Below, piece by piece: positions 1 through 44,574 of a stretch of 64,000 nt of DNA. Position 1 is the stretch's first letter; the number at the start of each line of letters is the position of its first letter. Source of the DNA: Takakia lepidozioides. Taxonomy: Eukaryota; Plantae; Bryophyta. The notes below the pieces were generated by a model. It saw only the letters and a list, made by a program, of their open reading frames with translations, was not told the DNA's origin and ran no database searches. The stretch is from positions 15,190,001-15,254,000 of the forward strand of contig CM060734.1 in assembly GCA_030704615.1 (NCBI GenBank), written 5' to 3'. A program made the position numbers and the translations under genes.

Positions 1-46
1 CCACGAGTTCAGGCGAGGACATGAAGCAGAGATTGAGGAGTGGAGG

Positions 47-2254
47 ATGTATTGGTCACCTGACTACGTCTCCATTACTCGAGGCACGACGCGACCAGTA
101 GCTGCATCAGTACCAATAGCTCCCACTGCCAGCACTAGTAGTGGAGCAAGTAGTGCTGGTACTTCTGCAGGTGGTACCAGTTCAAAAGGTGCTACTACTC
201 CTCCTGCCACGACTACAACACATGTGCCTAGATTCAACCCGGTGGTGGAGTTCTTCCAGGAGTTGCGGAGGAACTACCAAGGTGTACGGACAGAGAAGCT
301 GCGAAGTTTGCAAGACTTCCAGCGCAAACCCAGTGAGAGCCTGCGAGAGGCGTACACTCGTATGAGGCGCTTGATAAGTGTGACCCAAGGGGTTACTGAA
401 GCTCAGGCAATCCAGTTTTGGTATGGAATTCTGGACAAGGAGCTCAAGAGAAGGGTGCGAGATGCAACCCTGTTACAAGCAGCCCAACCCACATTAGCAG
501 ATGTGTTTCTGCTGGCTGAGCGGATTGAGCTCAACATGGTGGAGGAGCGAGTTGTTACAATTGGATTTGGCAAGGACATGCCTGCACGAGGCGCAGCTGC
601 CAGCCCACAGGCACAAGGGACTGCCCAACAGCGTGGTCAGGGGGGCAAGGTTGCCCAGCCCAAGTTCCATGGAGCTTACAGGGGACCTCAGGTGCAGAGG
701 CCCGTGGCATCTTTTGCAGGCCAACAGCAACCAGGGGTGATATGTTGGACATGTGGAGGACCCCATGTCAAGAGAGATTGCCCAGAGAGTGGCAAAAGGC
801 CGGCACAAGCACAGCCTGCACAGTTGCAGTGTGGGCATTGTGGCAAGTATGGGCATGGAGATGCCCAGTGTTATGACTTGCATCCTGAGTTGCGCCCAGG
901 CCAGTTCCAAGGGAACAATGGTGGCCGGGGGCGAGGTGGACCAGCCCAAAGAGGACGAGGTGGTCGGGCACGAGGTGCAGGCCAAGGGCAAGCTCCACAT
1001 GGCCAAGGACGCGGAGGTCAGGGTGTTGACCAAGGCATGGCCAATCGGCTTCAGCAGCTAGAGCAGAGGCTCGCTGCCATGGCTATAGCTCAGGCGGTAC
1101 CGGCTCCCAGGCGGGATGGTCCACCTCCTGCTCCTGAGGGAGGAGATATGGGAGGCATGGGATTCATGTGCGGAGCAGCACTACCACTAGAGCAGGTGGA
1201 GTCTGCTGCAGCCGTGACTCGAGGAGCAGCACGAGTTCCTGAGCCACGAGGTGCAGAGGTGGAATTGGATCCACAGCGTGGGGAGGCAAGCCGTCAGGCG
1301 AGGCTTCCTCAGTCATTCACATTGGCGGAGACTGTGTCGACGCCATCCATGGCACCTAGTTCTCGCCCGACTGTTACCGAGGCGGAGGTTACTATGCCAT
1401 TGGGGAGAGCTACACGTGCAGCACTGACACCTGCTACCAAGGCTAGTGCAGCCGGTGTGTTATTGGGGGCAGCCACCTCTGTGTGTCAAGCCCCACTGTT
1501 CTCGGCAACCATGATTGCGACGCCGGGGGTAAGACCAGCTGCAGTGTTCAGACTAGCAGCAACACTCTGTGAGAGTGGGGAGGTCACTTCATCTTCTGCG
1601 GAGTTAGTGGAAGGTGTAGTGGCAGAGGGATCCTCGGATTTGAGGGTCAAGACTGCCACGGCTGCGCCCTGGCAAGCTGCAGCTGCCAGGTTGACGGAGC
1701 TGCCAGCTAGGCCAGCCTTTGAGCGCGCCATGGTGACACCTGGAGTTGTCTTGTTAGACAACCAGGGAGGCATTTTCACTTTGAGTGGACCGGCAGGCAA
1801 GAAGTACCGGCCACTGCGGGTCTTGTTGGACTCGGGAGCTCAGCCACTGATGTTGGGCAGAGCTGCTATTGCAGGTTTGGGCCTCATGGAGGCGGATATG
1901 GAGCCTTGTCCTTTCCAGATACAGACATCTCTGGGAGGATCAGAGCAGGCTCGGGGCATGACACGGCATCAGTTGGCCATTAGACTGCAGCCGGATCATC
2001 CTATCGATGGCTCAGTAATGCGAGCCAAGGCCATTGTGACAGACGCGGTCTCTTACGATGTCCTCGTTGGTGGGGCAGTGTTATACCCCATGGGCTTCAC
2101 CCTGGACTTTTGGGAGGAGTCAGCATCCTACAGGCCTGGATGGCAGTCAGGGGATGGTCGCCGTGCACAGCTCCCTGTGACATTCATTGGGGGTATTAGC
2201 GGCTGCCCAGCGGGGCAAGATGCCAACACTAGCCGCCTTTACAGCTGCAGTTAG
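47..2254 (+). CDS. Gag with zinc knuckles plus aspartic protease of the gypsy element (frameshifts into the DNMT frame near 2190)
   Basis: Gag-like helical region (EKLRSLQDFQRKPSESLREAYTRM), knuckles CWTCGGPHVKRDC and CGHCGKYGHGDAQC, RGG-rich tract, protease active site VLLDSGAQ and flap-side motif YDVLVGG. Confidence 0.85.
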   Translation: MYWSPDYVSITRGTTRPVAASVPIAPTASTSSGASSAGTSAGGTSSKGATTPPATTTTHVPRFNPVVEFFQELRRNYQGVRTEKLRSLQDFQRKPSESLREAYTRMRRLISVTQGVTEAQAIQFWYGILDKELKRRVRDATLLQAAQPTLADVFLLAERIELNMVEERVVTIGFGKDMPARGAAASPQAQGTAQQRGQGGKVAQPKFHGAYRGPQVQRPVASFAGQQQPGVICWTCGGPHVKRDCPESGKRPAQAQPAQLQCGHCGKYGHGDAQCYDLHPELRPGQFQGNNGGRGRGGPAQRGRGGRARGAGQGQAPHGQGRGGQGVDQGMANRLQQLEQRLAAMAIAQAVPAPRRDGPPPAPEGGDMGGMGFMCGAALPLEQVESAAAVTRGAARVPEPRGAEVELDPQRGEASRQARLPQSFTLAETVSTPSMAPSSRPTVTEAEVTMPLGRATRAALTPATKASAAGVLLGAATSVCQAPLFSATMIATPGVRPAAVFRLAATLCESGEVTSSSAELVEGVVAEGSSDLRVKTATAAPWQAAAARLTELPARPAFERAMVTPGVVLLDNQGGIFTLSGPAGKKYRPLRVLLDSGAQPLMLGRAAIAGLGLMEADMEPCPFQIQTSLGGSEQARGMTRHQLAIRLQPDHPIDGSVMRAKAIVTDAVSYDVLVGGAVLYPMGFTLDFWEESASYRPGWQSGDGRRAQLPVTFIGGISGCPAGQDANTSRLYSCS

Positions 2255-3791
2255 TTGGCCTGGAGAGTTGCTGGAAGGCAATGCCCATGCAGAGGATGTG
2301 CCACCTCCAGCAGAGCAGGATGACATGCATGGTATGGCGGAGTTGCCTGCCATGGTTGCTCACACTCCATTGTGGGGTACGAGCAAGGATTTGCAGCAGG
2401 TTGCTGATCGACGGGTGCAACAAGCCTGGGTAGAGGCTTTTGTACCGTCAGGAGAGGAGGAGAGTGCGGGTATTGCACCAGGACCACCTCAGTTGTCACC
2501 ATTGGATACCACACCTATTGTGTGGCAGTATCCGGATGAAGGCATTTGCCTTCTGGACTTGTTTGGCGGGATCAGCACCGGATTGGCTGCTGTGCTACAG
2601 GCAGGTGTGCGGGTAAGGCGTTACCTGTATGTGGAGAGGGATGAGACTGCACGACGCGTCTCACTGCGCCATGTTGCTCAGTTGGTACAGCAGTACCCTG
2701 CTTTGTTGCCAGTGTCTGCAGTTCGTGGATACCAACAAGCCTTGCCAGCAGACATTTCGTTGCTGGGGGCGCCGGATTTGGAGCAGGTTGGCTCCATTGA
2801 TCTGGTAGTGGCAGGTTGGCCCTGCCAAGGGCATTCATCAGCCGGGCATGGCAATGGATTGCGAGACTCGAGGACGGGTCTGTTTTGGGAGATGGTGCGG
2901 ATTTTGCGCCACTTGCAGCTTCATCAAGCTGTATCTCCAGCATACATCTTGGAGAATGTGCCACTGATGGGTGATTCTCGGGCCAGGGTGATGGCCAGTG
3001 TGCATCAAGTCCGGTCGTGGCTTGGGTCAGCAGTGTTGCTGGATGCAGCTGCAGTGGGATCACGGGCTCATCGTCCACGGCTATGGTGGACTAACTTGAT
3101 GCCACCCGCACTGCTCAAGCGTGCATTTGATGGGGTGCAGCGGCCAGCACACCTCACCGTGGATGGCATTTTGGACACAGGGAGGCAGTCTCAACGTGTG
3201 AGACACGATGACCGTTCGCCTTTGGCAGTGGTCAACAGGGTGGGTCAACCACGAGCAGCATTACCTACACTGCTCAGCTTCCCAGGATCCCATGCTTTTC
3301 GGGATGGTGGACCTGGCCTCCTGTGGGATGCTCAGTTGCAGCAGTTAGTGGAGCCTAATGCCGACGAGCGAGAGCGGGCTATGGGGTTTTCCACTGGGAC
3401 CACGGCGGTGCCTTCTCTTTCTGAGGCATCACGTCGTCAGGTGTTGGGGCAAGCAATGGATCTCAATTGCTTGACCTGGATTATCAGCTTGGCTATGGCT
3501 GAGCAACGTAGAGTGCGGAGTGCACTTCCCTTGATGGTCTCTCTGCCTACCGAGACGGTACAGGCAGCGAGTGGGGGCGAGCCGGTGAGGACCACGGGGT
3601 GTAGACATCCATGGCACACGTGGGAGGTGCTCGAGGTTCAGAGGGAGTTGGCAGCCAAGGCAGCTGTGATGGATGAGGTTGGGGATTCTTCTCGGGATGA
3701 GGAGGTTCTCAATGATGAGATGATGGGGCAGGATGAGGCCTTGTCATTGACTGAGCAGGAAGGGAGTACTGCTCAAGAGGTTGCAGCATAG
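2187..3791 (+). CDS. DNMT3-like C5-cytosine DNA methyltransferase domain within the retrotransposon pol
   Basis: Motif I LDLFGGIS (~2553-2576), motif II YVERD, motif IV VAGWPCQG (catalytic Cys codon 2823-2825), motif VI YILENV (Glu 2952), motif VIII AHRPRLWWTN, motif IX ERERAMGF, motif X RRQVLGQAM. Same reading frame as RT, separated by a single TAG at 3789-3791. Confidence 0.93.
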   Translation: MGVLAAAQRGKMPTLAAFTAAVSWPGELLEGNAHAEDVPPPAEQDDMHGMAELPAMVAHTPLWGTSKDLQQVADRRVQQAWVEAFVPSGEEESAGIAPGPPQLSPLDTTPIVWQYPDEGICLLDLFGGISTGLAAVLQAGVRVRRYLYVERDETARRVSLRHVAQLVQQYPALLPVSAVRGYQQALPADISLLGAPDLEQVGSIDLVVAGWPCQGHSSAGHGNGLRDSRTGLFWEMVRILRHLQLHQAVSPAYILENVPLMGDSRARVMASVHQVRSWLGSAVLLDAAAVGSRAHRPRLWWTNLMPPALLKRAFDGVQRPAHLTVDGILDTGRQSQRVRHDDRSPLAVVNRVGQPRAALPTLLSFPGSHAFRDGGPGLLWDAQLQQLVEPNADERERAMGFSTGTTAVPSLSEASRRQVLGQAMDLNCLTWIISLAMAEQRRVRSALPLMVSLPTETVQAASGGEPVRTTGCRHPWHTWEVLEVQRELAAKAAVMDEVGDSSRDEEVLNDEMMGQDEALSLTEQEGSTAQEVAA

Positions 3792-5918
3792 CAACCACGG
3801 GACGCGTCCTCTACCTCTAAGCCCACTGGACTTAAGGTTGCAGTTACGGAGGACAATTGGGAGCCTGACATTGGACCCATTGTCACCGGAGGAGAGAGAC
3901 GACGTATACGGCGGTTCCTGAGGGCTTACAGGAATTGCTTTGCCTTCAGTTTGAAGGACTTGGGAGCACTGAAGGGTCAAGAGATCCGTATTGAGTTGGC
4001 CACTGACACGCCAATCTTTCGGAGACCCTATAGATACAGTGACATGGAGAGGTCTTTGATTCAGATGAGGACTCAAGATCTCTGGGAGGCAGGTTTGGTG
4101 GAGCTCTCTGGTGGAGAGTATGCTTCAGCCACAGTGATGCCAGCCAAGAAGGATGTCTATGGCAATTGGACGGAGAGACGTATGTGCGGTGATTACCGGC
4201 CTGTAAATCGTCAGACCAAGTCCGATAGGTATGCCATGCCGACACCAGAGGAGATCTTTGATGCCATTGGGCATTCCAAGGTCTTTAGCACGTTGGATTT
4301 ACGATCCGGATATCACCAGTTGCCGATCAAGGAGGCGGATAAGCAAAAGACGGCATTCTGGGGGATCAATGAGCACGGGAAGGATTGCCTATACCAGTGG
4401 CGGTTCTTACCATTTGGGCTTAAAAACGCTCCCGCTGAGTTTCAAAGAGTCATGGACAGGATTCTAGCAGGGGTGGAGTTTGCTCGGTGCTACATAGATG
4501 ACATCATCATCTTTAGTGCTACGGTGGAGGAGCATGAGAGACACCTTCAGGGGGTATTTGAGCGCTTGAGGACGCACGGATTGAAGTTACATCCGGGCAA
4601 GTGCAAGTTTTTCCACAACCAGATTGAGTATCTGGGTCACATGATATATCCTGGAGGATTGGGGGTACAGCAGACTAAGGTAGAGTCCATTGCACAGGTT
4701 CCACGCCCCACGGATGTGAGCCGAGTTCGAGCTTTCATGGGGTTAGCAAACTATTACAGACGGTTTGTTAAGGGATTTAGTGCCATTGCAAAGGCTCTAA
4801 CCAAGCTGACCAAGGTGGACCAGGAGTGGCAGTGGGAAGATGAGCAAGAACAAGCTTTTCAAGAGCTCAAGGCGAGGTTGACCTCGGCGCCCATCTTGAG
4901 ACGACCTATCAGGGGGCGTCCTTTTCAGCTGCATACAGATTGGAGCGGCTAGCTTAAGCACTACACTCTCTTGATGATCCACCTATGTGAGCACCGCTCG
5001 AAGCCCAATGCTGCAGAGTCTAAGTATAGCTCATATGAGGGAGAATGCTTAGCTGCAGTGTGGGCCGTGGCACACTTCAGGTGCTATCTATACGGCAATC
5101 TCTTCACCCTTGTCACGGATCACCAACCACTCAAGTGGTTGATGGAGTCAGACAAGCTTACGGGGAAGCTTGCACGGTGGGCACTCATCCTTCAAGAGTA
5201 TGACTTTCAGGTGGTGCATCGACCGGGTTTGGTCAATCGCAATGCAGATGGGTTGAGTCGCAATCCATGCACGAGCCAACAGGATGACACTGGAGCTCGG
5301 TGGCATGGTGAGACGGACGAGGAGATGGTGCCCGGATGGCATGCATCTGCATTTCTGTGTATCTTGGCAGCGGAAGGCCAGGTTGGACCTGCAACAGGGA
5401 TGACTGTAGATCAAGTGTCTGAGGACCCTGAGGCCAGCAATGAGCAAGGTGGCGCCAAAGATATACATGAGGATTCAGTTGTGTTGGACTACCTCCGCAC
5501 TGGAGACACTGCAGCCACTGTGACTGCCAAGGAGAGGGATCGGATCCTACAACGAGCCAAGAGGTTCAAGTGGGAGGGGACACACCTGCTCCGAGTGTGG
5601 GAGGATGGTCGAGTGAGGATTGTGCCTCACCCAACACAGCGGGCACGGTTAGTGCGGCATGCCCATGAGGAGTTGGGGCATTTTGGGGTGCGACGCACTC
5701 ATAGTCTACTGCAGGGGCAGTATTGGTGGCGTGGTATGCACACAGAGGTGCAACAATTTGTGGCTAGGTGCATGGTGTGTGACAGGGTGCGTGCTTCATT
5801 CAACGCCCCTACTCCACAATTGCATCCTCTTCCGATCATGGGATTGGGCTACAGGTGGAGTCTTGACTTCGCAGGGCCATTGCCACTGACCATGCGCCAC
5901 ACAAGTACGTGTTGGTGA
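3792..5918 (+). CDS. Reverse transcriptase, RNase H and integrase zinc finger (interrupted near 4950-5005)
   Basis: [41 protein letters not shown]; RNase H LHTDWS, SYEGECLA, TDHQPL, NADGLSR; HHCC HAHEELGH...CMVC; integrase WSLDFAGP. Confidence 0.93.
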
Positions 5919-6726
5919 TGGTGGACACTTCTCCAAGTGGATTGAATTGGTTCCATTGCCTGATAAGGCTAGTGAGGGAGCTGCGTATGCATTCTTGGAT
6001 TGTGTGCTTAGCCGATTCGGTGCTCCAGCTGAGGTACTCACGGACCAAGGGAGAGAGTTCTTGGGGGAGTTTCAGGCTTTGTGTGACAAGGCCTTGATAG
6101 ACCACCGCACCACTTCTCGGGATCATCCTGAGGCCGATGGCTTGGCAGAGAGAGTTGTTCAGACAGTAAAGAGGGGTTTGCGCAAGTATGGCTTGCAGAA
6201 GGGACACCTAGGAGATTGGGACCTTCAGTTACCCTGGTTAGCCATGGGCTACAGGTTCAGCAAGCAAGCATCACTTGCCTCCTTCTCACCATACTTTCTT
6301 CTCTTTGGCCGAGAGCCGGATTTGCCTACATCCATTCGCAGAGAAGCTGCTACAGTTCTTAACCTTGACGATCCGGACGTGTGGGCACGTGCATGTGAGC
6401 AGCGTGCAGAGTTGTTCAAGAGAGTCATGCCCATGGCTTTCGAGAACCTTGCCATTGCACAACACCGTGATACGTTGAGGTATGCTACCATACGTGGTGG
6501 GGGCTATCGTCCTGGGGTTCGGAGATTCAACCCTGGTGACTATGTCTATCTGCAGCAGACTGCTCCTACGACCCTGGATGTGACTGCAGGACGTGTTATT
6601 TTGAGGGTTCGAGAGGTCTTGCCTTCAGGCGTCTTGGTCTTGGAGGGTCGGGATGGCATAACTTGGAAGGACCATGTGCGTAATTGTGCGCCATGTTCAC
6701 CTTCCGAATGTCGATGGCAGGATTGA
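5909..6726 (+). CDS. Integrase catalytic core and C-terminal region (small frameshifts at ~5900-5930 and ~6697)
   Basis: VLTDQGREF and DGLAERVVQ complete the DDE triad; WDLQLP and SPYFLLFGREP are also present. Confidence 0.9.
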
Positions 6727-6760
6727 CCCAAACCTGGCAGTGGTATCTGCAGGTTTGAGG

Positions 6761-6895
6761 TGCATGTTGTGTGGGTCTGCTAAAGGGGCAGCCACCATGC
6801 TGGTGTGTGATCGATGCTCTAGAGGTTGGCATATGGGATGCTTGACTCCACCTCTTGAGATGGTTCCGGATGGGGATTGGTTATGTCCACATTGC
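6761..6895 (+). CDS. PHD finger at the integrase C-terminus (in ORF 6674..7063)
   Basis: C4HC3 pattern CMLC...MLVCDRC..GWHMGCLTPPLEMVPDGDWLCPHC. Removing one T at ~6697 joins it to the integrase frame (CAPCHLPNVDG). Confidence 0.9.
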
Positions 6896-7164
6896 ATTGG
6901 ACAGTGGGAGTGGATACAACCATGGAAGGCTAACAAGAAACGCAAGGTCCAGCTACTAGGAGACCTTGAACACACGAGGTCCTGGCTCAAGTTCACAGAT
7001 TGCAAGACGGCGACTAACGATGGGGCTACTCTTGTACCCGGCCTCTTGGTCTATAGAGTTTGAGTGCAATAGGGGCAGTGATAGAGGACTTAGTACGGCT
7101 GTGGCTATTACATCTTGTAGCTATCTGGAGGTAGAGGGACCTACCCACCAGCTAGGGGGGCGAT

Positions 7165-7692
7165 TGTGGCAGACTACTTTATTGTGCATATATGTGTGGT
7201 GTGGTTTGGACAGCGATGTAGTTGTGTAGCGATATGTATGCGCACGACAGCTGTCAAGTTAAATAAGCACAATGTGAAAACAACTAGAATAAAACTAATT
7301 ATTTGTATTTAACACTTGGATTTAGATCAAGTGTTAAATCAGGTGTCAAGTTTAGTTTGACACCTGGTCCGTCTTATCTTCACGAGAGCGGCAGTCGCGC
7401 GGCTCATCTCTCTCGAGTTGAGCCTGCGCGACCAAGCTCCTTCATTCTTCAGATCTGAGTGTGCTTATGATGGGAGTGTAGGTCGTTGTGGGGTGGAGTC
7501 CCCATAGCTTGGGGTGCCCCTGGCTCGACTATTATTCAAAGAGTGATGTTGAGGGATTTCATATTTCTGGTGTTGAGAGTGTGTGTCCTTTCAAGCTTTC
7601 TTATCATTGTGGCAGACTACTTTATTGTGCACATATGTGTGGTGTGGTTTGGACAGCGATGTAGTTGTGTAGCGATATGTATGCGCACGACA
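7165..7692 (+). repeat. Probable 3' LTR of the DNMT-gypsy, with an 85-bp direct repeat at both ends (7165-7249 and 7608-7692)
   Basis: Begins TG right after the PPT and ends GACA. The two 85-bp copies differ at one visible position (gcatat vs gcacat). Confidence 0.7.
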
Positions 7693-7738
7693 AGAGCTTA
7701 GAGTTCAGTACGTGATCGTCCTTGGGATTGGCCTCATC

Positions 7739-10700
7739 ATGGGGTCGGGCAAGCCAAAGCGAAAGCGGAACGGCCCAAAAGATGATGATCCTGGTGAGCC
7801 TGATGGGGGCGACGTGTCACCGAAACGGCCGTTTGAGGAAGCGACGCAGGTTTCTGAAAGCGAGGCCGCTCAAGAGCGGGAGGAATCCGAGGAGTTGGAG
7901 CCCGAGGAATCCGTGAGAGCTCTGACCGACCAACAGATGCCTCCCATGCCGGCAGCCTTTTGGGAAGGGTTGTTGGCGCAGTTTGGCGGGACGTTGAAAG
8001 ACGTGTTGAAGGCGGCTAATGCCACTTCCACTAAGGCAAAGTTTAAGGTGAAGCCTAAGGAACCCGGCACCTTCGAGGGCGTCCAAAATCGGAAGGCACT
8101 CAACACCTGGCTCCTGGAGCTAGAGCAGTACTTCCGGGCGGCCAAGTTGAGTGACGAGGATCGGGTGGAAGTGGCTCCAATCTATTTGAGGGGCTATGCT
8201 CAACAATGGTGGCAGAAACGCCTTCACGACCGAGATCCAAGCCCGGAAACCTTGGACTGGAGTGGGTTCAAGGAATTGATGAAGAGACAGTTTGTGCCCC
8301 TCAACGCGTCCTGGCTTGCCCGGGACAAGATGAGGAATTTGAAGCAAACAGATGACATTCGGGGGTATGTCCAAGCTTTCAATGTACTGTTGCTCGAAGT
8401 CGCGGACATGGCAGAACCAAAAATGGTCTTCAACTTTGTGGCGGGACTGGCCCCATGGGCCAGGCGGAAGTTGGAGGAGAGGCCACCCAAGACTTTGAAC
8501 GAGGCAATTGAGAGGGCTGAATGTTTCTCGGATGTCCCTAGGGGTGAGAGACAAGGCCGTACGGAGCTGAACCACAAGAAGACCCGGCGGGAAGGTGACT
8601 CCTCCCGGCCGGAAAAGAAGTGGGATAGGCCACGCGGCGACAATGGCACGTGGAAATTGAAGGGAGGGCCTTCACACGTCAAGGCGGCACCCGGTGCTTC
8701 GAAAGGAAAAGCGGGTGGAGCGGCTTATGGCGGATAGAAGGCGACCTTTGATGGAGTCTGTTTCAATTGCGGGGAGCCCGGGCACATGGCCAAGAAGTGC
8801 ACAAAACCTCGACAATTGAACATGACTCGGGCAACGACGGAGCTGTCGGAAGATACCATCAGTCGCTTGGTGGAAGCGGTGGTTGCCAGGACTTGCAAGG
8901 TAGGCAACTATTCTTGTGAGTTGTATCAGGAAACTGGCGCCCTGCGTAAAGGGAGTCAGTTATTGTTCGTGGATGGGATAATATCCGAAACTAACGTGTC
9001 GTTGTTGGTGGACACAGGAGCGTCGCACTCCTTCATGACGCCGGCGGCGGCGCGAAAGTTGGGACTCCCGACAAGTGACGTGGGGGCCTCTATTGAGGTG
9101 CGTTCTGCCAAAGGAGAACCACAGTTGGCGACAAGGTTGGCGTTTGATGTTCCTCTTCAACTGGGGAGTTGGGAGGGACGTGAGAACTTCACCATCTGCG
9201 AGATCGATGGAGTGGATCTCATTTTGGGGATGACCTTTTTGAGCAAATCCGGAGCGGTCATAGATGGCCGCAAGAGAGTAGTCACGCTGCCATGTGGGAA
9301 TGGTGGCGAGGTTTTACGAGTGTCGGAAACGCCCAAATCCGTGGGAGGGCGAATAAACCTTTTGTCAGCAAAGGAGTGGGCCGTGGAGGAGGCACACGAG
9401 CCCCAATTTTTGCTTTACATTAGAGAAGTGAAAGGAGAAGGCGATGGGGAGCCGAGCCCAGATTGGATCAAGGGGATTTTGGAGAAATACCAGGATCTGA
9501 TGCCGGAGGATTTACCAAGCGGCTTGCCACCACGAAGAGGAGTTGACCACAAGATTGAGGTGATACCGGGATCGGAACCGCCTGCCAAGGCGCCCTACCG
9601 GTTGAGCCACAGAGAGTTGGTCGAGCTGAAGACTCAGCTCAAGGATCTAATGTCAAAGGGGTATATCCGGCCGAATAAGTCACCTTACGGAGCCCCGGTG
9701 TTATTTGCAGACAAGAAGGATGGGACGCTGCAGATGTGTGTCGATTACAGGGCTCTGAATAAGGTGACTATAAAAAACCGGTACCCTTTGCCAAGGATCG
9801 ACGACCTCTTCGATCGGTTGGCAGGAGCGAAGTATTTCAGCCGGATCGACTTACGCTCCGGCTATCATCAAATTCGGGTGGCGGAAGGAGATGAGGAGAA
9901 GACCGCGTGCAGGACAAGGTATGGTTCATATGAGTTCTTGGTGATGCCTTTTGGGCTCACCAATGCACCAGCGACATTTAGCACGCTGATGAACAGCCTT
10001 TTCCAGGAGTGGTTGGATGACTTTGTGATCGTGTACATCGACGACATCTTGGTGTACTCGAAAACAAAGGAGGAGCACCTGGAGCACTTGAAAAGGGTGT
10101 TCCAAAAATTGCGAGAAGGGAAGCTGTATGCCAAAGCTTCAAAGTGCGAATTCAGGGTCACAAAAGTGGAGTTCCTGGGGCATGTGATTACACAGGATGG
10201 GATCAAAATGGATGACAGAAAGGTGAGGGCGATCTTGGACTGGGAGCCTCCGACTTCGGTCCCGGGAGTGCGATCCTTCCTAGGACTCGCCTCCTATTAC
10301 CGTAAGTATGTGAGAAATTTCGCCAAGACCGCTGTCAGACCTTATGTGTAAATCTAAAGTCTGGGCATGGAACACCTTTTGTGGCCAAGCTTTTGCTGAA
10401 TTGAAGCAGCGGATGGCGGAAGCTCCAGTCTTGAAAATCCCGGAGTTCGATCGTCCATTTGAGATTCATACAGATGCGTCGGACTTCGCGATTGGGGGTG
10501 TACTTATGCAAGATGGACGTCCAGTGGCTTACGAAAGTAAGAAACTGAATGAAGTGGAGCGACGGTGGCCGACGCACGAAAAAGAGATGAAGGCGGTGGT
10601 GCATTGCCTCGAGCTTTGGCGCCACTATGTTGGTTCCAACCCAGTGAAGGTGTTCACGGACAATGTCACGGTGAAGTATTTTGCCACGCAGCCCAAGTTG

Positions 10701-12291
10701 TCCCCAAAACAACTTAGGTGGCAAGATACTTTGGCGGTGTTCGACGTGGATATCCAGTACAAACCGGGATGAGACAACGTGGTGGCCGATGCTTTAAGTA
10801 GAAAGCAGCAGCTCTTGTTGGTGTACAAGGGCGAGACGGTGCTCCAAAGGAAGATCCGGAAGGCTTGCCGGAAGGATGAGCTGGCAAAGTCCGCGATGCA
10901 GGACTTGAGGATGGGGGTAAATCGCAGTTCCACTTGCAAAATGGACTGCTCCGGTATAAGCAAAAATGTCTCTACGTGCCGAAGGGAGGGATCAGAGATA
11001 GCCTCTTGAGAGAATGCCATGATAGCCCACTTGCGGGCCACGGCGGAGCCAAGCGCACTGCGTCACTCTTGAAGAAAGAGTATTTCTGGCCCAAACTGAG
11101 GGAGGAGGCAGAGGAGTATGTCAAGACATGCACCACATGCCAACAAAACCGGAGCGAGTACAAAAAGCAAGCGGGGCTGTTACAACCCTTGCCAATTCCA
11201 GAGGGGACTTGGGAAAGCGTCTCGATGGATTTCATGACTGCTATGCCGCTGTCAAAAGGATTCGATGCAATCATGGTGGTGGTGGATAGGTTCAGTAAAA
11301 TGGGCCATTTCATCCCCACCAAGGAGACGGCAACGGCGCAGGAGACAGGGCGACTTTACTTCGCCCACGTCTTAAAACATCATGGAGTCCCGAAGGATAT
11401 TGTCTCGGACCGCGATCCAAAGTTTACGAGTAAATTTGGAGGGCACTTTGGAAGAAGATGGGGACGAGGCTGAAGATGAGCACCGCCTTCCGACCTACAA
11501 CCGACGGCCAAACAGAAAGGGTGAATTCCGTAGTGAAGCAGATCTTGCGGAATTACATGTCGGCAGACCAAACAGACTGGGTGGAACACTTAGACGCGGC
11601 AGAGTTCTGTTATAATAACACTGAACACTCCGCAACGGGAGTTTCCCCTTTCGTATTGGTCTATGGAAAAGCACCTCTGGTGCCGACAAGTTGGGCCGCC
11701 CAGGACGTTGAGGAACCGGCAGTAGCGGCGGTACTGGAAGAACGCGAGCGTTTGTTGAAGCTCACAAAGTACAATATTGCCAAAGCTAGGAAACGGTATG
11801 AAAGGCAGGCGAATCGGAAGCGGAGGGAAGTGAAGTTTGAGGCAGGCACAGAGGTCTGTTTGAACATCAAGAATTTCCGACTATCTCCGGAAGTGAGTCC
11901 GAAGTTCATACCTCCGTATGCAGGACCCTTTCGCATTCGGAAGGTTATGAATGAGGATGTGTATGAATTGGAGCTGCTGGCAAACAGTAAGGTGCACCCA
12001 GTATTCCATGTATCCTTTTTGAAGCCTTACTTCAAAGATGAAGCGCGTCCGAATCGGCATCAAGTGTTGCGTCCACCACCTATGTTGTTGGATCATGAAA
12101 ATGAACCTGAGTACGAGGTGGAGGCAATACTTAAGTCGAGGAGGTTCAGGAACCGAGAAACGGAGTATCTCGTCAAATGGAAGGGCTATCATCATGTGGA
12201 GGCATCTTGGGTGCGTGCCTCAGAAATGGGAAACGCATCCGAGGCGGTTGCAGCTTTCGAAGGGCGACCTCAAAAGCAGAAGAAGCGTTGA
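7739..12291 (+). pseudogene. Chromovirus gag-pol with chromodomain; stops and frameshifts at 8735, ~10340, 10770, ~10930, ~11440
   Basis: Gag (KPKEPGTFEG, LRGYAQQWW), knuckle [14 protein letters not shown] in frame after the TAG at 8735, [40 protein letters not shown] integrase, chromodomain YEVEAILKSR..EYLVKWKGY..EASW (~12110-12230). Confidence 0.92.
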
Positions 12292-12325
12292 TGGGGACAT
12301 CAACCTTGGAGCGTGGGGGAGGAAA

Positions 12326-18199: not shown

Positions 18200-19113
18200 C
18201 ACACCTACCACCTCCCACCCATTTCTACGCCTCCCTGCTGGGGTCAAGCTATTAGCCACAATTGACCCAAACCAGCTTAAATATACCCATACCCCTCATT
18301 TTCCCAAATACCTTAGGCAAAAGGAAGCACCCTGACCCTCATCTTGCATGTCCAAAACCCCCACCACGCTGCCATACCCACACCTTTCTATCACAAACTA
18401 GAACATCTACTAACCATTACTCATAAAATAAAGGCCATCATCCACCACCCACCTACCCCCCATTGTACAAATATACCTACCCCTCTCCCCCGAATTAAAA
18501 CAAATAAAGCCTAGATTGAGGCATTGCAGCGCCCTCCACAGGCCACACCAACAAACCCCCTCCCCCCTATTCCCTCATTATACCGGCAATCCTACCCCCT
18601 CAAATACCCTCCCGCGAACTCTCATTACATTGATGGATCCCTTACTCAAACTAATGCAGGCTTCGGTATCTATCACGCAGATACAGGGAGAGGGGTGGCC
18701 CTCAGACTTCCTGGCCCTGCAACCATTCTCAGGGCCGAGCTTATGGCCATATATGACGCTCTCCTCCTACTCGATACCTTCCCCCCCCCCCCCCCCCCCC
18801 ATACTTCATCTTCACTGATAGCCTTACCACTTTCTTCCTCATCCGCAACCACATTGCCCGCCCCTCCTCCCACCACTGGTCATCATCCTGACCGTAACCT
18901 CATCTTAGCCATTGTCAACGCTGCCGTTTCTATAAAGCACCTCGTACACCTACTCAAAGTACGCTCGCACACTGGCATTCAAGGGAATGAGGAGGCCGAC
19001 CTCCTTGCTCAGCTCGGTGCTACCAAACTCAAAGTTAACCCCACGAACGACCCAATCCACATCGCCCACTCCTACCCCTTCTGGTTTATACACCTAGTTC
19101 CGAACCCTACTGA
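18200..19113 (+). mobile_element. Non-LTR retrotransposon fragment with RNase H domain (Dualen/RandI-like LINE)
   Basis: HYIDGS, TILRAELMAI, IFTDS (other frame after the poly-C run) and KVRSHTGIQGNEEAD. C-rich composition like the LINE at the window end. Truncated by the PLE at 19114. Confidence 0.75.
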
Positions 19114-19226
19114 TCAGCCATTGAGGCAGCTCTTAGAATGGCGAACCCAGAAGATGACCAGACTGTCTCCACGCAGAAATCTACAAACACATCTGATATG
19201 TAAGTAATCACCCAATCCTTGGGCAC

Positions 19227-20372
19227 ATGATTTTACCGGATGAAGAAAAAGAGGCAGTGAGAGAATTCTGTGAACAAGTAGAAATCTCACAAGTGGAACA
19301 AGAAAGGGCAACAGGTGCCACTCCTGGAAATCTGCAATTTGTCCCTTGGTTGCCTCCCCGTGCAGTTGAATTAGAGGTTGCCAATAACGATCACATGATG
19401 TGGCACCCACATGCTAATATCAATTTATTGGCACCCATTTCTATTGAAATGTGGGTCAAATGGGGCAACATAACTCCTGCTGAACGGAGTAGGTGTGCAC
19501 AGGATGCTAAGGAGGGTTTTCAGAGAATAAAAAAAGAACCTATTGCTGTGGCATGGCCACTAAGGACCTTCTACTACAAGCTCTGTGACAAAGGTGAGAA
19601 CCTTACCTTGAGGACCAAAAATGACTTGCCGACTGGTTCGGCCAGATCCAAAAATCACAAGAGTCAACTCTTCAACTGGCATCGTCCCTACATAAGATGT
19701 AACTGTGGACAAGGAGGGGCACCCTCTTCTTGCATTGGGAGTGTTGCTTGGTTTGACCATATGGTATGGTATATGCTGAACAATCTGATTGTGTTCTTCC
19801 CTGATGATGCCTATCCTTCGGTGCAAACCAAGTATGACAGCTTTCTGGTATGGATCATGCGGGCTGCCAGATCTGCCGTTCTTGCACAAATTACCTTCCA
19901 GATGACCCGGGGCTTCATAATGGAAGCAGCTTGTGAATTCTCAATTGACCCCCAAGCCAAGTTGCTTGGGAAGTTAGGAGAATCCAAAGGGGCCAGATAC
20001 ATTGAGAAACTTGTGAAACCTGGGTCTTTTTCAGACAGCCTTCCCAGGCCACAATTCAACAGCTACAAACGGCAGCGTATGGAGGGGCAGACGCCTCCTC
20101 AACAAGGCAAGAACAATGCCACTCGAGGCAGAGGTACCCCTGGTCGTGGAAGAGGTCTCTACCAAAGAGGAGGACGCTCTGGCAGGGGGCAATACTCTAC
20201 CAACACCTCTGAGAATTCAAGAGCAACGAATCGGTCATCACTTGGGGGTTCGGGTGCTAATTCCAGTACCACCATCAACATCGCCAGCCAGGAGTCATAC
20301 AAGACTCGTCGTATCACTGACGAGTTCTCCCCAATACGCAAACGAGATTTTGGATCATGGACAGATCTTTAA
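19227..20372 (+). CDS. PLE ORF1 (5'-truncated), unknown protein with RGG-rich C-terminus
   Basis: Open in both copies (381 and 429 aa); contains RGRGTPGRGRGLYQRGGRSGRG. Confidence 0.7.
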   Translation: MILPDEEKEAVREFCEQVEISQVEQERATGATPGNLQFVPWLPPRAVELEVANNDHMMWHPHANINLLAPISIEMWVKWGNITPAERSRCAQDAKEGFQRIKKEPIAVAWPLRTFYYKLCDKGENLTLRTKNDLPTGSARSKNHKSQLFNWHRPYIRCNCGQGGAPSSCIGSVAWFDHMVWYMLNNLIVFFPDDAYPSVQTKYDSFLVWIMRAARSAVLAQITFQMTRGFIMEAACEFSIDPQAKLLGKLGESKGARYIEKLVKPGSFSDSLPRPQFNSYKRQRMEGQTPPQQGKNNATRGRGTPGRGRGLYQRGGRSGRGQYSTNTSENSRATNRSSLGGSGANSSTTINIASQESYKTRRITDEFSPIRKRDFGSWTDL

Positions 20373-22592
20373 AAATCTCATTTTTGGTATGTTCCTCTAC
20401 TTTGCATGTGCAGATGCGTTGTTTGGTCTTGAGGATGGTTGTAGACAAATTGAAACTCATGCCCATGGCAGGAAATTCATAAAACAGGCAGCAAAACCTG
20501 CTCCCTTGGGATTCATTCATATGTTGTACCCAAACCGTGGTATGGAGTGGATAAACCCTAGGAACATGATAAAAGAAGCTTTTTTGGAATTTGGACAAAA
20601 TGACTTGGCTATTCTCATCGATGAGATAGTCTTTGGATGGACATATCATAAACAAAGCAGCTCTGAATATTATCAGCCTGCTGCTGTTTTCCGTGATTTT
20701 TGCTTTATGCAAGACCTGATTCACTCACCAAATTGTCTATGTGACAGTGCCAAGAGGTTTCATGATTTTCGGGATGCGGATACAAAAACAGAATTCCATC
20801 TATCTGGTTCTATACCTACGCAACACGTACGTACCATGGACCTAAATATTATTAGACACGCAAGGCTGAAAGAACTATTCAGCCTAGGTATGAATCACAT
20901 CCCTCTCAAACGTACTTTGCTGAAAGACGTTGTTGAACAAGTGTCTCTAGCTTTCCATAGAACCTGTGAAATTTTGCATATAGACCCATGTGAATCTTGG
21001 GCAGCATCCTGCAGCCAATGGGTAAAAAACACATGCTGGGATAGATTGAAACAAAAAGCCGACAGAGGAAGGTACGACTTCACTCACCATGAGCGCAATC
21101 CTCTTACTGTAAAAGAGGCAAAAGATGAACTTTCATGGCTTCTCAATCACCTGTATTTTTCTGGTCTTGACACGGCTAACAACAATGTATGTTTTATGTG
21201 TGTGAAGCACATAAGAACTCAAGCCTTCCAAAGATTGATGGGTAAAGACTTTACACCATGCAAGCAAGCTGAGGTATGGCTGCCACCTGACCTTGTTCTA
21301 GGAAACATTTCCGTGGAAATACAGAGTCTGATTCCGGAGATACCTGCTCCCTCCTGTAGATTACCTTACATTATGGGAATCTACAAGCTACATAAGAAAA
21401 AATACAGATGGATTACCAATGCCCATAAATGTGTTTTCAGTGAACTTGCTAGCCTTCTTACAAGGGCTACCATGGATCTTCTACCATTGGTAAAAGAATG
21501 GGCCAAGACAAGGCTGGATACTTATGAGCAATTTTTCAAAGTATCTACTGCTATGTATTGGATTATTGATTCCATCACTGACTTTACACTAAACCTGCCT
21601 GAAAAAGTCCATAACATCTTTGTTGCTGGCATTACACAATGCTATGAGAACATACCTTTGACAGGACAGGATAACTTAGGGGACGCCATTGAATACGTGG
21701 TGAAGATTGCATTCCAACAACACCATCGGTCTCACCCCCGAGCACGTCATACTCTATGGATTCCAGCCAAAAACGGTACTTTCGGAAAAAGTAGATGGGG
21801 CACATCTTCCCCAAAATCAGGTACCTGGATTGAACTTTCTGAAGTCAAACTACTTATGCTCCACAAATGGCTTATGTCACACTGTTTTGTCGCCTTAGGG
21901 GACCGTGTATGGCAGCAGATTTCTGGAATACCTATGGGTTTTTCATGCTCACCATTATGGTGCAACATGTACTTCCTTTCTTATGAAATCAAATTCATCT
22001 TAAGGCTTGTAGCTTTAGGACAATTCCAGCTTATGCCTATGTTTAAATCTGCCTTCAGATACATTGATGATATATGCTGGCTAAATGTGGGTGATGCAAT
22101 GCTATTCCTGGACCCACGGGTAGACAGAAGCAGCAACAACCCTTGGTGGATCTACCCACTCAATGTAGTGGAGATCAAACCTGAGCTACTACGCACTAAA
22201 AACGATTCCCAATACGTGGGGTTGGAAGCTTGTTTCATGAATATCCAGATTACAGTCTCAAACTGTAACACAGGTGAGTTCCATTTCCAGAAATATGACA
22301 AGAGAAGACTACTTCCTTTCTCTTACACTCAATATATCCAGTTCTTATCCATAGGCCTGTGAATCAATCTTACAACATTGTGATTTCACAAGCTGTGCCT
22401 ATTCTATACATTTCCAGCAATGCTGATCTGGCTGGGAAGGAGTGTGGCATTCTGATTAACACTCTTGGGAGGAATGGTTTCAAGACCAGAAAACTTGCTC
22501 GTATCTTGACAAAATTCCTTGAACGTGGTTCATTCCCTGGCCCGCTCTTCCCTGTACAAGAGCTTATTGAGAAACTGAAAGGTATTTTCTAA
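20116..22592 (+). pseudogene. PLE reverse transcriptase ORF2, copy A (1-bp deletion at ~22350; DKA>DTA and ADIT>AGIT changes)
   Basis: CLC...HVRTMDLNII..LKELFSLG linker, D(K/T)ANNN, PYIMGIYKLHK, QQISGIPMGFSCSP, FRYIDD, YDKR. Confidence 0.88.
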
Positions 22593-24599
22593 AAACCTAT
22601 ACAGAGCTATGTTATACCATTGAACTCTACATTCTTTTCTAAGTGATACTATACTAGTGTTGCTATGATACATTTTATGCCATCATTTCATTCTTGATCC
22701 GAGGAAGTGAGGATGTAGGATTCTACTCCTTTGGATAAATATTATCTGAGGATAGAACTACATGGAAGAGGGAAAACCTTATGAGAAGAGGTCTGGTATG
22801 CACTCCCTTACGGGGTGAGTGCATACCACATTTACTCCGTAAGGTTCTGCCATGCCAGGGGATTGGCTGGTGGGTCCCTCTCTCTCCCTCTCTCCCTCTC
22901 CCTCTATAAATCTTTGGATTTCATCTGGCCTTAACCTTTTGAGGTTATTTAGTTTTTCATCCCTGCCTTTTTCATCCAAATCTGGATGATTTTATTTTAT
23001 TGGATGATGAAACTTAATATACAGAAAGCTAGAGTTACCATCTATTTTTTTCATCTAAACTGGATGATCTACATAAATAATGGTTACCTATTATAAAATC
23101 CAAGAGAATAATAAAACTACCATCATAAATGATGGCAGTTATTAAACCTAAACCTATACCATAACCCTAAAAGATACATGTCTATGGGATGTCATCTAGT
23201 GACAAAATGCCTATCTTGGTAAAATGTGATATTTCATCCATCCTGGATGAAAAATCGGGAAGTTTTGCCCTAAGCAGGCCGACACACTTCAAGCACTGAA
23301 CTCGTGCTTCAGTGAACCTTGATGATGCGCCGTATAAACCTGCTCCCCTGTTGCTACATGGTACTCGTGATTGCTGGCTCTTGGGATGCGCAGTGGTGGT
23401 TAAGCAGATTCTTCTATGGCAGACGACAAAGCCGTGATTGCTCTGATCAGGAACTCATGGTTCTTTATTTTGCAGCGGCGCTTTTACTCCTTGTTGGGAA
23501 GTACTCTATCCCTATTTATCTATAGATTACTTGTTGCTCTCTCTTCGTGTATGAGCCACTCTCTAGCTGTGAACGCTTCTACTCTGATTGCGTTCTGTTG
23601 GAGACAATCTGTTGGACGCCATGGCGCAGGGCATACCACAAACACTCAAGGTTTTTTGAGTTTACCATTGCTTGAATTGTGATCTGTACTTGCTTTAGAA
23701 TTCAACACTGCCACTTACCTGCTGCATCCTCACTAACACACATCGCTATGTGGTGGTTTTTGGGACGGGCACAGGTGAGGGTCTTCACTTGTCTTGATTT
23801 CTTGAAGCTTGCAGTTCCTGTTCTTGCAAGTGTGGATACTGCTGCTGCCTAAGCTGCTGATGTCATCTGCTGTTTCAAACTGCCACCATGCCGCTTCAGA
23901 CCTGCTCCAAGATTGCTCCAATGAGGATCTGCTTCTCTCCTTACCCCTGTTTACGGTTTTTTACAACCACATTTGCATGTGTAGGAGTTTAGCTATGAAG
24001 GATACAAGGATACAAAATAGCAGTTATTACTTTGACTGCCTTGATACTTGGCTCTGAAATGAGAACTCTTGGTATGACTCTGATGGATCAAAAGGATAGG
24101 CTTTGATAGATAACACACATTCTTCAAGGCCCTCATATCATTTTGGTTTCATGGCTTGATAACAAACTGGGGTTTCTGAGCTGCTCTTTCACCTTGGCAG
24201 AACTACTTTATGTGGCCTTAAAATACCATTCTAGGCCTATACCTGCTTAAGGGGGCTCTACACTGTTGTTTCTTCTTCCTTTTTAAGAATCTTGCTTATA
24301 TCTTGGTTCTAAAACATCATCTTCAAACCAAACCTGCAATCTGGTTTTTGAAATGAGTTTAAAATGGATTCTTGAGATGATGTGTACTATGGTGCTTTTA
24401 TGATATGAATGACCTGGAATCCCACCCTCCCGCCCTGTTTTTTTAGAGACCCTGAAATGTAATTGGGTATTCAAATGAGATTGTAAACATGAAAGAGAAT
24501 GTTAGATGGTGCCCTGTAAAGGGCTGTTTTGTCTTTCAATGACAATGACCTTAGCGGTCTTGTCCATGTCTTGACATGACATGTATATCTTCCCTCTCT

Positions 24600-33200: not shown

Positions 33201-34325
33201 CATCGTTTTGCCCAAAAAATCGAAGAGGGTAAAATTGCCGACCTTGGTTATTGAGCAAGCGCATGACTTCATACTGAAGAACACCCCATCCATACATGAG
33301 TGGGAGGCAAGATACAATAACCTTGTTCAACAACGAGAGGAGGAGACGCTTGCATGGAGGCGGAACCATCCATGGCCGGTTACTAGACGTCGTCGTCGAG
33401 GAGCGGGCCGCCGGAATGTTCCTTCACAAGATTTGCCCGTGGAATTGCAGCCTCTAAGTTCATTCCAACAGTGGCTCAAGACTTCAGTTTATGACGCCAT
33501 TTCTCAAGGTGAGGTGGTTTCAGATATGGTGCAAGACCTTGCAAGGGGCCCATCTCAATTCGCGACCTCATACACGGCGGTTTGGGATCACGGTCGTCAT
33601 TTCTGCATTCGTGCTCTTGACATGAAGTGCAAAACAACGTTTGATTCTGGCTTGTGTACCACATATTGGCAAGACTCCGTGTAGGGTAAGGGAGATACAC
33701 GAGCTCCTATGAGCAAACTTGAGTACATTGGAGAGCTTGAGAGCATACTCCAACTTCAGTATACAAGGTACCGGCCTCTTCTCTTCAAGGGAAGGTGGTA
33801 CCAGCCACATCTTGTGGGGCCCTCCGCAACACTAATGCAAGATGATTGTGGTTTCATGCGCGTCAATGCAGATAGGCTCAACCCTACTCATCGTCCCTCC
33901 GATGAGCCTTTTGCATTTCTTTCAGACATGGAGCAAATTTTCTTCTCCGATGACAAAACAAGAGGGGGAAATTGGAAGGTGGTTGTGCATGCTCAGCCAA
34001 GAGGAAGACGTATCTATCATGGTCTCGGATCTCCACGAGGTGAGGCAATTACGGTGGAGGGATGGACTGGTCATAATCTGATGATGGAGGTTGGGTAGAG
34101 GGGGTAGAAGAGGATGATGACGCCCTGAAGAATGCATCCCAGACCCTATATGATGAAGCTCCAGAAGATACGGATGTTGGACAAGCAGATGAAGACACAA
34201 CCATTGACAACGAGGTGGAGGATGATTCGGAGGTGCCTTTTGAGGGTCGGGCCATTTATGACGATGACTCCGATGACCAAGAAGACTTGCAGCTTGATAA
34301 GGATGAAGAAGCTCCGGATGATGAT
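30290..34325 (+). pseudogene. CACTA/En-Spm Tnp2-type transposase, intron-containing, with stops
   Basis: HACPCDKILY..CPKC, RLGFSSDGVNPY, STWPV..NYNIPP, YLRPLVDEL, DYPG, FYELPYW, LDLMHIEKNV, GLKSHDYH, PPSFFDIQVHLVVHL..GPVHSRWMYFLER..EGSMAEGY, and a DUF4216-like DEPF..QIFF..WKVV. Confidence 0.92.
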
Positions 34326-37940: not shown

Positions 37941-38039
37941 GGCTCATGACATGTAATATTTTAATGTATTTTAGCTCCTCATAGACATTAGGGTTCGTGG
38001 GTTGGCAAGTTGATTTCGGCTAAGTGTTAGGAGAGGGAG

Positions 38040-43920: not shown

Positions 43921-43931
43921 TGGTAAAATTA

Positions 43932-44570: not shown

Positions 44571-44574
44571 TCTG

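Follow-up and report, generated by a model that had tools for sequence, protein, structure and literature searches.

A decayed Ty3/gypsy element of Takakia lepidozioides and the land-plant branch of retrotransposons bearing a DNMT3-like methyltransferase

Why retrotransposons should carry an enzyme that silences them has been a question since 2018, and the known hosts of such elements, Symbiodinium and Klebsormidium, are hard to work with. The same question is raised by a stretch of 64,000 nucleotides from Takakia lepidozioides (hereafter the window), in which the feature at 2187..6895 belongs to a degenerate Ty3/gypsy copy from a family with a DNMT3-like methyltransferase domain (Table 1). 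A first-pass annotation, made from the letters alone, had described it as an LTR retrotransposon encoding its own DNMT3-like methyltransferase and a PHD reader in one polyprotein, and had cited precedents in dinoflagellates and a charophyte alga. Comparisons with Pfam, the PDB and known folds bear out the element-borne enzyme, with matches to DNMT3A, and it is a family-wide property; the algal precedent is correct (PMC5890265).

The methyltransferase domain and its family

The C5-methyltransferase motifs lie between the protease and the reverse transcriptase, as annotated, in an uninterrupted domain that the proposed profile search with PF00145 recovers at E=6.7e-13. Sequence matches in the PDB have E-values of 6e-11 for DNMT3A versus 3e-4 for HhaI and 3.5e-5 for a DRM-size chain. 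A Foldseek search with the predicted structure (pLDDT 87) gave DNMT3 in every row among the matches listed, and a feature search of the ESM Atlas returned only general, mostly viral C5-methyltransferase clusters. Judged by motifs, sequence similarity and predicted fold, the domain is of the DNMT3 type. Its catalytic cysteine is present in 74 of the 75 loci covering the site and the asparagine of ENV in 76 of 78. The domain does not evolve neutrally: dN/dS is 0.08-0.19 in six between-subfamily pairs, which indicates purifying selection, with the protease behaving alike (0.11-0.31); values of 0.41-0.55 are seen in close pairs of decayed copies.

The intact catalytic residues had been taken as a sign of recent function. 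This stands for the family only, because the window copy is dead, with three frame breaks and one 60-bp inversion; the breaks from reverse transcriptase to PHD were absent from the first-pass list. The break between the protease and DNMT frames (near 2190-2200, with the frames overlapping at 2181-2254) is private to this copy. It had been explained as a 1-bp slip in a G run at ~2189-2193; a one-base length difference relative to other copies agrees with this, but the site is a few bases further right, near 2198.

Table 1. Features of the element in the window (positions in the window)
Feature	Positions	Strand	Evidence and remarks
Gag, two Cys/His knuckles at ~740-880	2..900	+	5' end outside the window; Retrotrans_gag E=0.0036, below cut-off
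Aspartic protease, D-S-G 1829-1837	1730..2188	+	Sequence; homologous region in L040 is Asp_protease_2
DNMT3-like C5 cytosine methyltransferase domain	2520..3530	+	Motifs in linear order: I 2559, II 2628, IV WPCQG 2817, VI LENV 2949, VIII RAHRPR 3063, IX 3366, X 3441; catalytic Cys 2823-2825; Pfam, PDB and fold matches
Conserved stop and 3' context TAG CAA CCA (UAG-CAR-YYA) closing ORF1; probable site of readthrough	3789..3797	+	Conserved across junctions
Reverse transcriptase, YIDD 4491-4502	4011..4700	+	RVT_1 E=5.4e-33
RNase H, broken by 60-bp inversion 4947-5006	4830..5270	+	Profile match, comparison with copies
Integrase, H2C2 zinc domain and rve core	5571..6700	+	Frame breaks near 5900-5925 and 6696
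PHD finger, integrase C-terminus	6761..6895	+	PHD E=1.6e-11
Polypurine tract	7150..7163	+	Same motif directly 5' of repeat B1 in related loci
Repeat B1, 86 bp, end CGACA	7164..7249	+	98.9% identical to B2
Palindromic joint GACA-GC-TGTC, B1/A2	7246..7255	.	Right and left element ends two bases apart
Repeat A2, 355 bp, TGTCA...TATCA, likely self-primer stretch 7402-7417	7252..7606	+	A1 = A2 in L061, L073, L006
Repeat B2, right end of element	7607..7692	+	Repeat comparison

Profile searches of the window and of locus L040 find the Gag-PR-RT-RH-INT order of Ty3/gypsy, and in both the DNMT3-like domain is intronless and lies inside Gypsy ORFs; L040 is a single open frame from 973 to 8227, interrupted by one TAG alone. 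Named relatives come from Marchantia, Calypogeia, Riccia, Sphagnum, Klebsormidium, Closterium and two chlorophytes; a search of viral contigs yielded one distant locus (36% over 140 residues), which was left out of the analysis. Such Gypsy-DNMT3 elements have been stated to be lost in or absent from land plants (PMC6338049); contrary to this, they occur in liverworts and Sphagnum. The window Gag is 60-76% identical to the N-terminal parts of Marchantia ORF1 proteins, and several uninterrupted ORF1 copies of 1,280 residues are annotated as hypothetical genes in Marchantia polymorpha. These make the function of the DNMT testable in a model plant (by CRISPR; met1 mutants de-repress transposons), and element copies of this kind distort the number of DNMT3 genes counted in bryophyte genomes.

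The family represents, in land plants, the KnitGypsy-Dnmt3 lineage already known from Klebsormidium nitens (de Mendoza et al. 2018, PMC5890265). The K. nitens elements likewise combine Gypsy coding regions with a DNMT3-like domain that is intronless and unrearranged, and they are under purifying selection (below 0.2, comparable to the between-subfamily range given above). GAQ93235 (P0373), a protein of this alga, shares 38.5% identity over 322 residues (E=1.5e-61) and has the protease-DNMT order without a reverse transcriptase. SymbioDIRS-Dnmt3 of Symbiodinium is also a retrotransposon-borne DNMT3, which methylated CG de novo in yeast (PMC5890265), but its element encodes a tyrosine recombinase and has the enzyme in Pol, whereas the window family has a DDE integrase and 4-bp target duplications. 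As here, the EpiLTRs of Cymbomonas and Euglena are LTR elements that unite a methyltransferase with a histone reader; theirs, however, are a DNMT4-related enzyme, an adenine methylase and a chromodomain, and they are stated to be distinct from the streptophyte Gypsy-DNMT3 elements (bioRxiv 10.64898/2026.05.21.726589).

The PHD finger has its best PDB matches in CHD4, PHF12, the KDM5B/5A PHD, ATXR5 and PHF21A. PHDs of the CHD4, KDM5-PHD1, PHF21A, BAZ2 and UHRF1 type generally read H3 unmethylated at K4 and lack a cage tryptophan two residues ahead of the histidine; the PHD of the window may be of this type. A PHD is also found in the Gypsy polyprotein of Gypsy-7a_cRei from Chlamydomonas, where it is proposed to steer insertion; the available part of that description mentions no cytosine methyltransferase. 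Selgy elements were considered as further PHD carriers and dropped, PMC6317226 making no mention of PHD, methyltransferase or Marchantia.

The stop codon at the end of ORF1

The DNMT is in the RT frame with a single TAG between them (3789-3791), as the first-pass annotation had noted. Rather than decay, this TAG is a conserved family signal: TAR-CAR-YYN occurs at 48 of 55 junctions, in loci that are mostly of one (Sphagnum-like) family and in part identical insertions, and three further junctions are one C-to-T change away. ORF1 comprises Gag-PR-DNMT and is followed by TAG-CAR-YY and, in the same frame, by ORF2; DNMT and PHD are hence encoded in different ORFs and not in the single polyprotein first proposed. 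The codons 3' of the stop vary in amino acid (P, L, S) while CAR-YY is kept, with the subfamilies only 49-70% alike. With the threshold set at 2%, no variant is listed for 3787-3797 in the 2009 contigs of sequencing run X1 or in runs X5, X7 and X9, and a search for RNA structure 3' of the stop gave none that was clear (z -0.5 to -2.2). Of the 39 top long homologues, 28 include a complete DNMT but no RT, terminating 17-183 residues past the domain.

The window has the same stop and hexamer as the TMV-type readthrough signal UAG-CARYYA, which gives ~20% readthrough in plants in a reporter (PMC4132726; PMC2754532); the exact form is found in the window and at 8 of the 55 junctions. In this family the putative signal separates Gag-PR-DNMT from RT, and RT-RNaseH-integrase-PHD is likely made by reading through it. 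Since the DNMT shares ORF1 with Gag and protease and the RT part would depend on readthrough, the enzyme would be made at the Gag level; the conserved stop predicts both its amount and its destination. In many relatives the DNMT belongs to Pol instead, either fused to RT or placed between RNase H and integrase, so that Gag-level dosage is not required family-wide. The text of the KnitGypsy-Dnmt3 paper (PMC5890265) places the DNMT in Pol and has nothing on readthrough, PHD or liverworts, whereas the window family has land-plant hosts and its DNMT is outside the Pol ORF with RT, upstream of the conserved stop. Proteins of the K. nitens type likewise terminate once past the DNMT, and the published Pol wording may therefore be loose; their ORF1 ends ~8 residues past the domain as against 59-183 in the window's clade, from which they form a separate clade.

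Split repeats and an internal palindromic joint

The designation as an LTR retrotransposon holds in part. Ty3/gypsy domains, TG...CA ends and 4-bp target duplications (AAGG at L061, CATA at L073; the left end of the window copy lies outside the window) speak for it, but there is no plain LTR pair: the direct repeats are split, with A only at the left end and B-GC-A-B or B at the right, and two identical terminal LTRs are absent. Two other readings, one with B1 and B2 as LTRs belonging to a small nested element and one with A2 as an LTR of the adjacent chromovirus, were abandoned after comparing element ends in related loci. We infer that the A...B-GC-A-B layout represents an ordinary two-LTR cDNA that has been circularly permuted. 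If a two-LTR circle were cut at random, the mirror form should occur as well, but none of 17 left ends showed it.

Ten of 14 A1 ends are self-complementary over 9-16 bases, and the window's family shows the same pairing in different letters; a self-primer searched for at L040, L046 and L003 was not found there. In one contig of run X7 the end of A is followed by the complement of 7402-7417; X7 is RNA by guess only, none of the runs listed with matching contigs being on record as RNA.

With an rve integrase and 4-bp duplications the family departs from DIRS/Ngaro elements, which have a tyrosine recombinase and no target duplication. KnitGypsy-Dnmt3 is described as having "DIRS-like" repeats with Gypsy domains, which the window family fits as far as the wording of the Fig. 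4c legend goes. The foamy-virus integrase, also of the DDE type, cleaves a palindromic joint between two LTRs (PMC1180852); that joint is present in circles only, whereas here the integrated element itself contains one internally as a fixed feature. The split repeats and the internal joint point to an integration route atypical for LTR elements.

What the methyltransferase may do

The reading that we favor, with a probability of roughly 55%, is a readthrough-separated Gag-PR-DNMT whose enzyme is packaged at the Gag level and likely methylates the new cDNA. A minority of ribosomes would read through the stop, leaving the DNMT several-fold in excess over RT and integrase and taking it into the particle within Gag. 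Reverse transcription would be self-primed just behind A1, with the plus strand starting from the polypurine tract before B1, and the resulting cDNA would have B-GC-A as its true terminal repeat. Integrase, perhaps guided by the PHD to H3 tails unmethylated at K4, could then open the palindromic CA-GC-TG joint to give the permuted A...B-GC-A-B copy, for which the 4-bp target duplication is observed. The DNMT freed by the protease would methylate nucleosome-free cDNA before insertion, and new copies would be pre-marked. Methylation of cDNA appears to be the likeliest function. The fusion of the DNMT to Gag, ahead of the conserved stop, puts both this function and packaging on somewhat firmer ground.

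CpG depletion as proof of self-methylation was rejected on mixed controls: synonymous sites retain 29/431 CpG versus 39/221 in the neighboring chromovirus (p=4e-5), but the loss is as strong in another gag fragment in which no DNMT was seen (1/38) and is thus not specific. The C/T differences between copies (CG 0.167, CHG 0.201, CHH 0.045) are explained equally well by host silencing.

Although the window copy is broken in four places, there is next to no chance that the domain is a one-off capture or a neutral passenger inside a dead element: other copies do carry it, homologues at E<=1e-30 fall into 563 clusters at 50% identity, selection on it is purifying, and the same 12 rows form one clade in both the DNMT tree (98/96), which is built of element-borne domains only, and the RT tree (95/90). 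That the domain is retained to bind nucleic acids or modify RNA inside the particle, and not to methylate DNA, would accord with KnitGypsy-Dnmt3, the closest relative assayed, having shown no methylation in yeast, a result its authors call inconclusive, and with the RNA methylation proposed for LINE-borne DNMTs (PMC5890265); it is improbable given that PCQ, ENV, RxR and both SAM motifs are conserved and that motifs IV/VI and the fold fit DNMT3 and not an RNA methyltransferase. The TAG might also be a true stop, with ORF2 reached via splicing or reinitiation and CAR-YY kept for some other reason. Reinitiation is possible in the Sphagnum-like family, which has an ATG two codons after the stop; further, the sixth base is C in 40 of the 48 matching junctions (CAR-YYC, not CAR-YYA), and the early end of Klebsormidium-type ORF1, as seen at the protein level, agrees with termination. 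We nevertheless hold this to be quite unlikely, as no ATG is found there in the window, L003, L040, L044, L046 or L077, ORF2 is exactly in frame, and the nucleotide pattern is constant while amino acids vary and the flanks do not align.

The same two-frame layout could instead serve an enzyme acting in the nucleus on copies already present, on the insertion site or on host DNA, in self-limiting copy control or chromatin conditioning, roles that are discussed in PMC5890265. An ORF1 made in excess, with many Marchantia copies annotated as genes, would suit this, as would the RNaseH-DNMT-integrase-PHD form, which puts the enzyme beside integrase. Set against it are the absence of a reader or targeting domain in ORF1 itself and the fact that Gag fusion directs proteins of LTR elements into particles, leaving a nuclear role conceivable but doubtful.

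Going beyond packaging and cDNA methylation, we tentatively offer a broader picture that is, taken whole, rather unlikely: a green-plant-wide lineage with a replication of its own, combining self-primed cDNA, an internal palindromic joint cut by a DDE integrase and a readthrough-dosed DNMT3 methylating cDNA, in which a kept CpG may tell the integrase which joint to cut or spare. Such a mark steering the choice of joint would explain why the enzyme and the split repeats co-occur. A CpG five bases from the right end is kept in all four subfamilies seen, in an element that is otherwise CpG-poor.

A land-plant branch of the Gypsy-DNMT3 family

The family of the window element is the land-plant branch of Gypsy-DNMT3. 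Sequence searches for relatives found 192 and 60 of these, and a profile search recovered 563 clusters at 50% identity (E<=1e-30); hence a one-off capture, with other copies of the family lacking the domain, can be set aside. The named land-plant members come from Marchantia polymorpha, Marchantia paleacea, Calypogeia, Riccia and three Sphagnum species, and the algal ones from Klebsormidium nitens, Closterium and the chlorophytes Hariotina and Cymbomonas; the nearest named relatives are from Calypogeia (76%) and Marchantia (75%). Together with the PPR genes at 38-46 kb, these nearest relatives suggest a land-plant host, probably a bryophyte. No vascular-plant name occurs in those lists, in which named rows are a minority. 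One Marchantia cluster has 15 listed members, of which four (P0230, P0231, P0232, P0235) map to the male V chromosome; two of these four have the full 1281-residue ORF1. Separately, P0023, whose label assigns it to a bacterial MAG as a cytosine methyltransferase, shares 94% identity with the DNMT of the retroelement locus L040 and is likely eukaryotic contamination of the bin.

Features of the window
Feature	Coordinates	Strand	Remarks
Ty3/gypsy-type element, right-hand part	1-7692	+	order Gag, protease, C5-methyltransferase, RT, RNase H, integrase, PHD
C5-methyltransferase domain	2520-3530	+	no interruption; PF00145 E=6.7e-13
TAG ending ORF1 (Gag-protease-DNMT)	3789-3791		
Palindromic B1/A2 joint	7246-7255	.	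GACA-GC-TGTC
Decayed chromovirus	7693-12300		directly after B2; gag, protease, RT, integrase, Chromo (E=3e-12)
Transposon fragments	18515-19204; 32836-33681; 61596-63100		DUF4218 (CACTA-type) and non-LTR retrotransposons, one with RNase H
5-kb unit, two copies	19190-24600; 49950-56560		inverted orientation, 93-98% identity
PPR-gene repeats	38000-46000		tandemly duplicated, partly broken, two inverted clusters; units ~300-390 bp

Of the earlier accounts, one holds that land plants 'such as tracheophytes' lack these elements (PMC6338049), and two give the host range as 'streptophytes', with land plants not named in the portions available (PMC12344493; bioRxiv 10.64898/2026.05.21.726589, 2026). 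KnitGypsy-Dnmt3 is described as having DIRS-like repeats and a Ka/Ks <0.2 and as inactive in yeast (PMC5890265); 'readthrough', 'PHD', 'Marchantia' and 'liverwort' are absent from the available text of that paper. The presence of a PHD in algal Gypsy elements is already known. Neither bryophyte members of the family nor readthrough in it is the subject of any paper found in the literature searched, which leaves out most subscription journals and Repbase, and the layout with a conserved, probably leaky stop and the permuted ends appear to be undescribed so far. The Marchantia copies make a Gypsy-DNMT3 element testable.

Among 128 proteins of >=900 residues, the commonest layouts are RT-RH-DNMT-INT-PHD (34) and Gag-PR-DNMT (29), with PR-DNMT-RT in a single frame seen in a few. 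In a quick, midpoint-rooted tree, which does not settle the deep branching order, the RH-DNMT-INT form, to which both named chlorophytes belong, is one clade (support 98) and that of the window is another (support 98); the window's 12-row clade is found with the DNMT and also with the RT. The DNMT has moved within the polyprotein at least once in the history of the family. Diversity is greatest in the form where the DNMT follows RNase H and precedes the integrase (P0263-P0401, P0181, P0351; named members Hariotina and Cymbomonas).

The methyltransferase has motifs I, II, IV, VI, VIII, IX and X in linear order. Its best solved-structure match is human DNMT3A (E=6e-11; HhaI 3e-4), and in a Foldseek search with the predicted fold (pLDDT 87) all listed matches are DNMT3 (best E=3.5e-19, TM 0.67/0.81), bearing out the DNMT3-type assignment of the first-pass annotation. 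The domain is under purifying selection rather than neutral: dN/dS for six between-subfamily pairs is 0.13, 0.14, 0.11, 0.08, 0.09 and 0.19, with dS close to saturation in five of the six (0.25 for L040/L044), and 0.41-0.55 for three close pairs of decayed copies. The same annotation had read recent function from the intact catalytic residues. This holds for the family, in which 74 of the 75 loci spanning that site retain the catalytic Cys, but not for the window copy. When compared over 1-7700 with contigs from four sequencing runs, the latter differs in length near 2198, 5900, 5925 and 6696, and has 4947-5006, whose opposite strand encodes RNase H, inverted. These changes are private decay, and this copy is dead. 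In the richest run, X2, the family is present many times over, with 87,536 matching contigs, a figure that is not a copy number.

The stop codon between DNMT and RT

The first-pass annotation had put DNMT and RT in one polyprotein with a single TAG between them, a reading that the conservation of this TAG contradicts. Among the 39 top long homologues, the whole DNMT is present in 28, which end 17-183 residues beyond it without RT; six have a partial domain match only, and the five that include RT or RNase H pieces are all Marchantia gene models. The Klebsormidium nitens protein P0373 (GAQ93235) and five relatives likewise end just after the DNMT. From 81 loci and the window, 55 junctions had both sides within 700 bases (four more were excluded for insertions or deletions); 48 of these show TAR-CAR-YYN in the RT frame (CAR-YYA 8, CAR-YYC 40), three are one C-to-T change from it and four are different. 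CARYY follows only 118 of the 9454 TAGs in these loci, junctions included. Most junction loci belong to one family ~90% like Sphagnum proteins, with some insertions represented more than once, so that the subfamilies lending independent support number about five: TAG CAA CCA (window, L003), TAG CAA CTA (L077), TAG CAG TTA (L040, L044), TAG CAA TCA (L046) and TAR CAA CCC. The second codon after the stop encodes P, L or S depending on the subfamily; therefore, the constraint acts on nucleotides. Among 2009 contigs of the window's family in run X1, no variant is listed at 3787-3797, and 3785, 3786, 3798 and 3799 are variable. Apart from this TAG, locus L040 is open for 7.2 kb, with two ORFs, 1369 and 1047 codons long. 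In available texts, UAG-CARYYA is the TMV-type readthrough signal (PMC4132726, PMC2754532). The conserved context thus points to the stop being a signal, with readthrough probable. One decayed locus, L068, has a sense codon here, probably a chance change given its decay.

Permuted ends and a proposed mechanism

Complete loci have the order A1-ORFs-PPT-B1-NN-A2-B2, A and B being terminal repeats and PPT a polypurine tract, with 4-bp target duplications (AAGG in L061, CATA in L073). The B1/A2 joint, found in eight sequences, brings together the element's right and left ends with two bases between (GC in five; AC, TC and GT in one each). No tRNA-type primer site was found behind A1 in the loci examined; in 10 of 14 loci the bases there are complementary to a stretch of 9-16 bases inside A, and one X7 contig of the window's family has the same 16-base pairing in different letters. 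This pattern resembles self-priming of the Tf1 type. Self-priming has also been noted for Tcn1 (PMC6317226). A primer behind A and the PPT before B would define a normal cDNA with the terminal repeat B-GC-A, and the integrated form would be this cDNA circularly permuted, with A2/B2 resembling its ends after joining. The mirror form of the permutation is seen at none of 17 left ends, which counts against a simple circle model. Cutting of the palindromic joint by the integrase, for which the available text of PMC1180852 offers a DDE precedent, is a tentative step, somewhat less probable than not. At seven loci the right end directly follows B1 (in one, L055, the target duplication matches at three of four bases), as expected either from B1/B2 recombination or from a cut at the inner joint.

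We propose that the DNMT is made and packaged together with Gag and would methylate the new cDNA; for this overall model we estimate a probability of about 0.55. The best matches of the PHD are the CHD4, PHF12, KDM5, ATXR5, PHF21A, BAZ2 and UHRF1 fingers, whose specificity is for H3 unmethylated at K4, and because of this likeness the PHD might steer the element to such H3. DNMT and PHD would be joined in the readthrough product alone, the rarer of the two. Loss of CpG was rejected as unusable evidence for self-methylation.

Elsewhere in the window, the ORFs of 391-781 codons in the inverted 5-kb unit have no Pfam match, and the unit is possibly an undescribed mobile element. The DNMT element appears to have inserted just upstream of the chromovirus gag, and CpG depletion is far weaker in the chromovirus than in the DNMT element.
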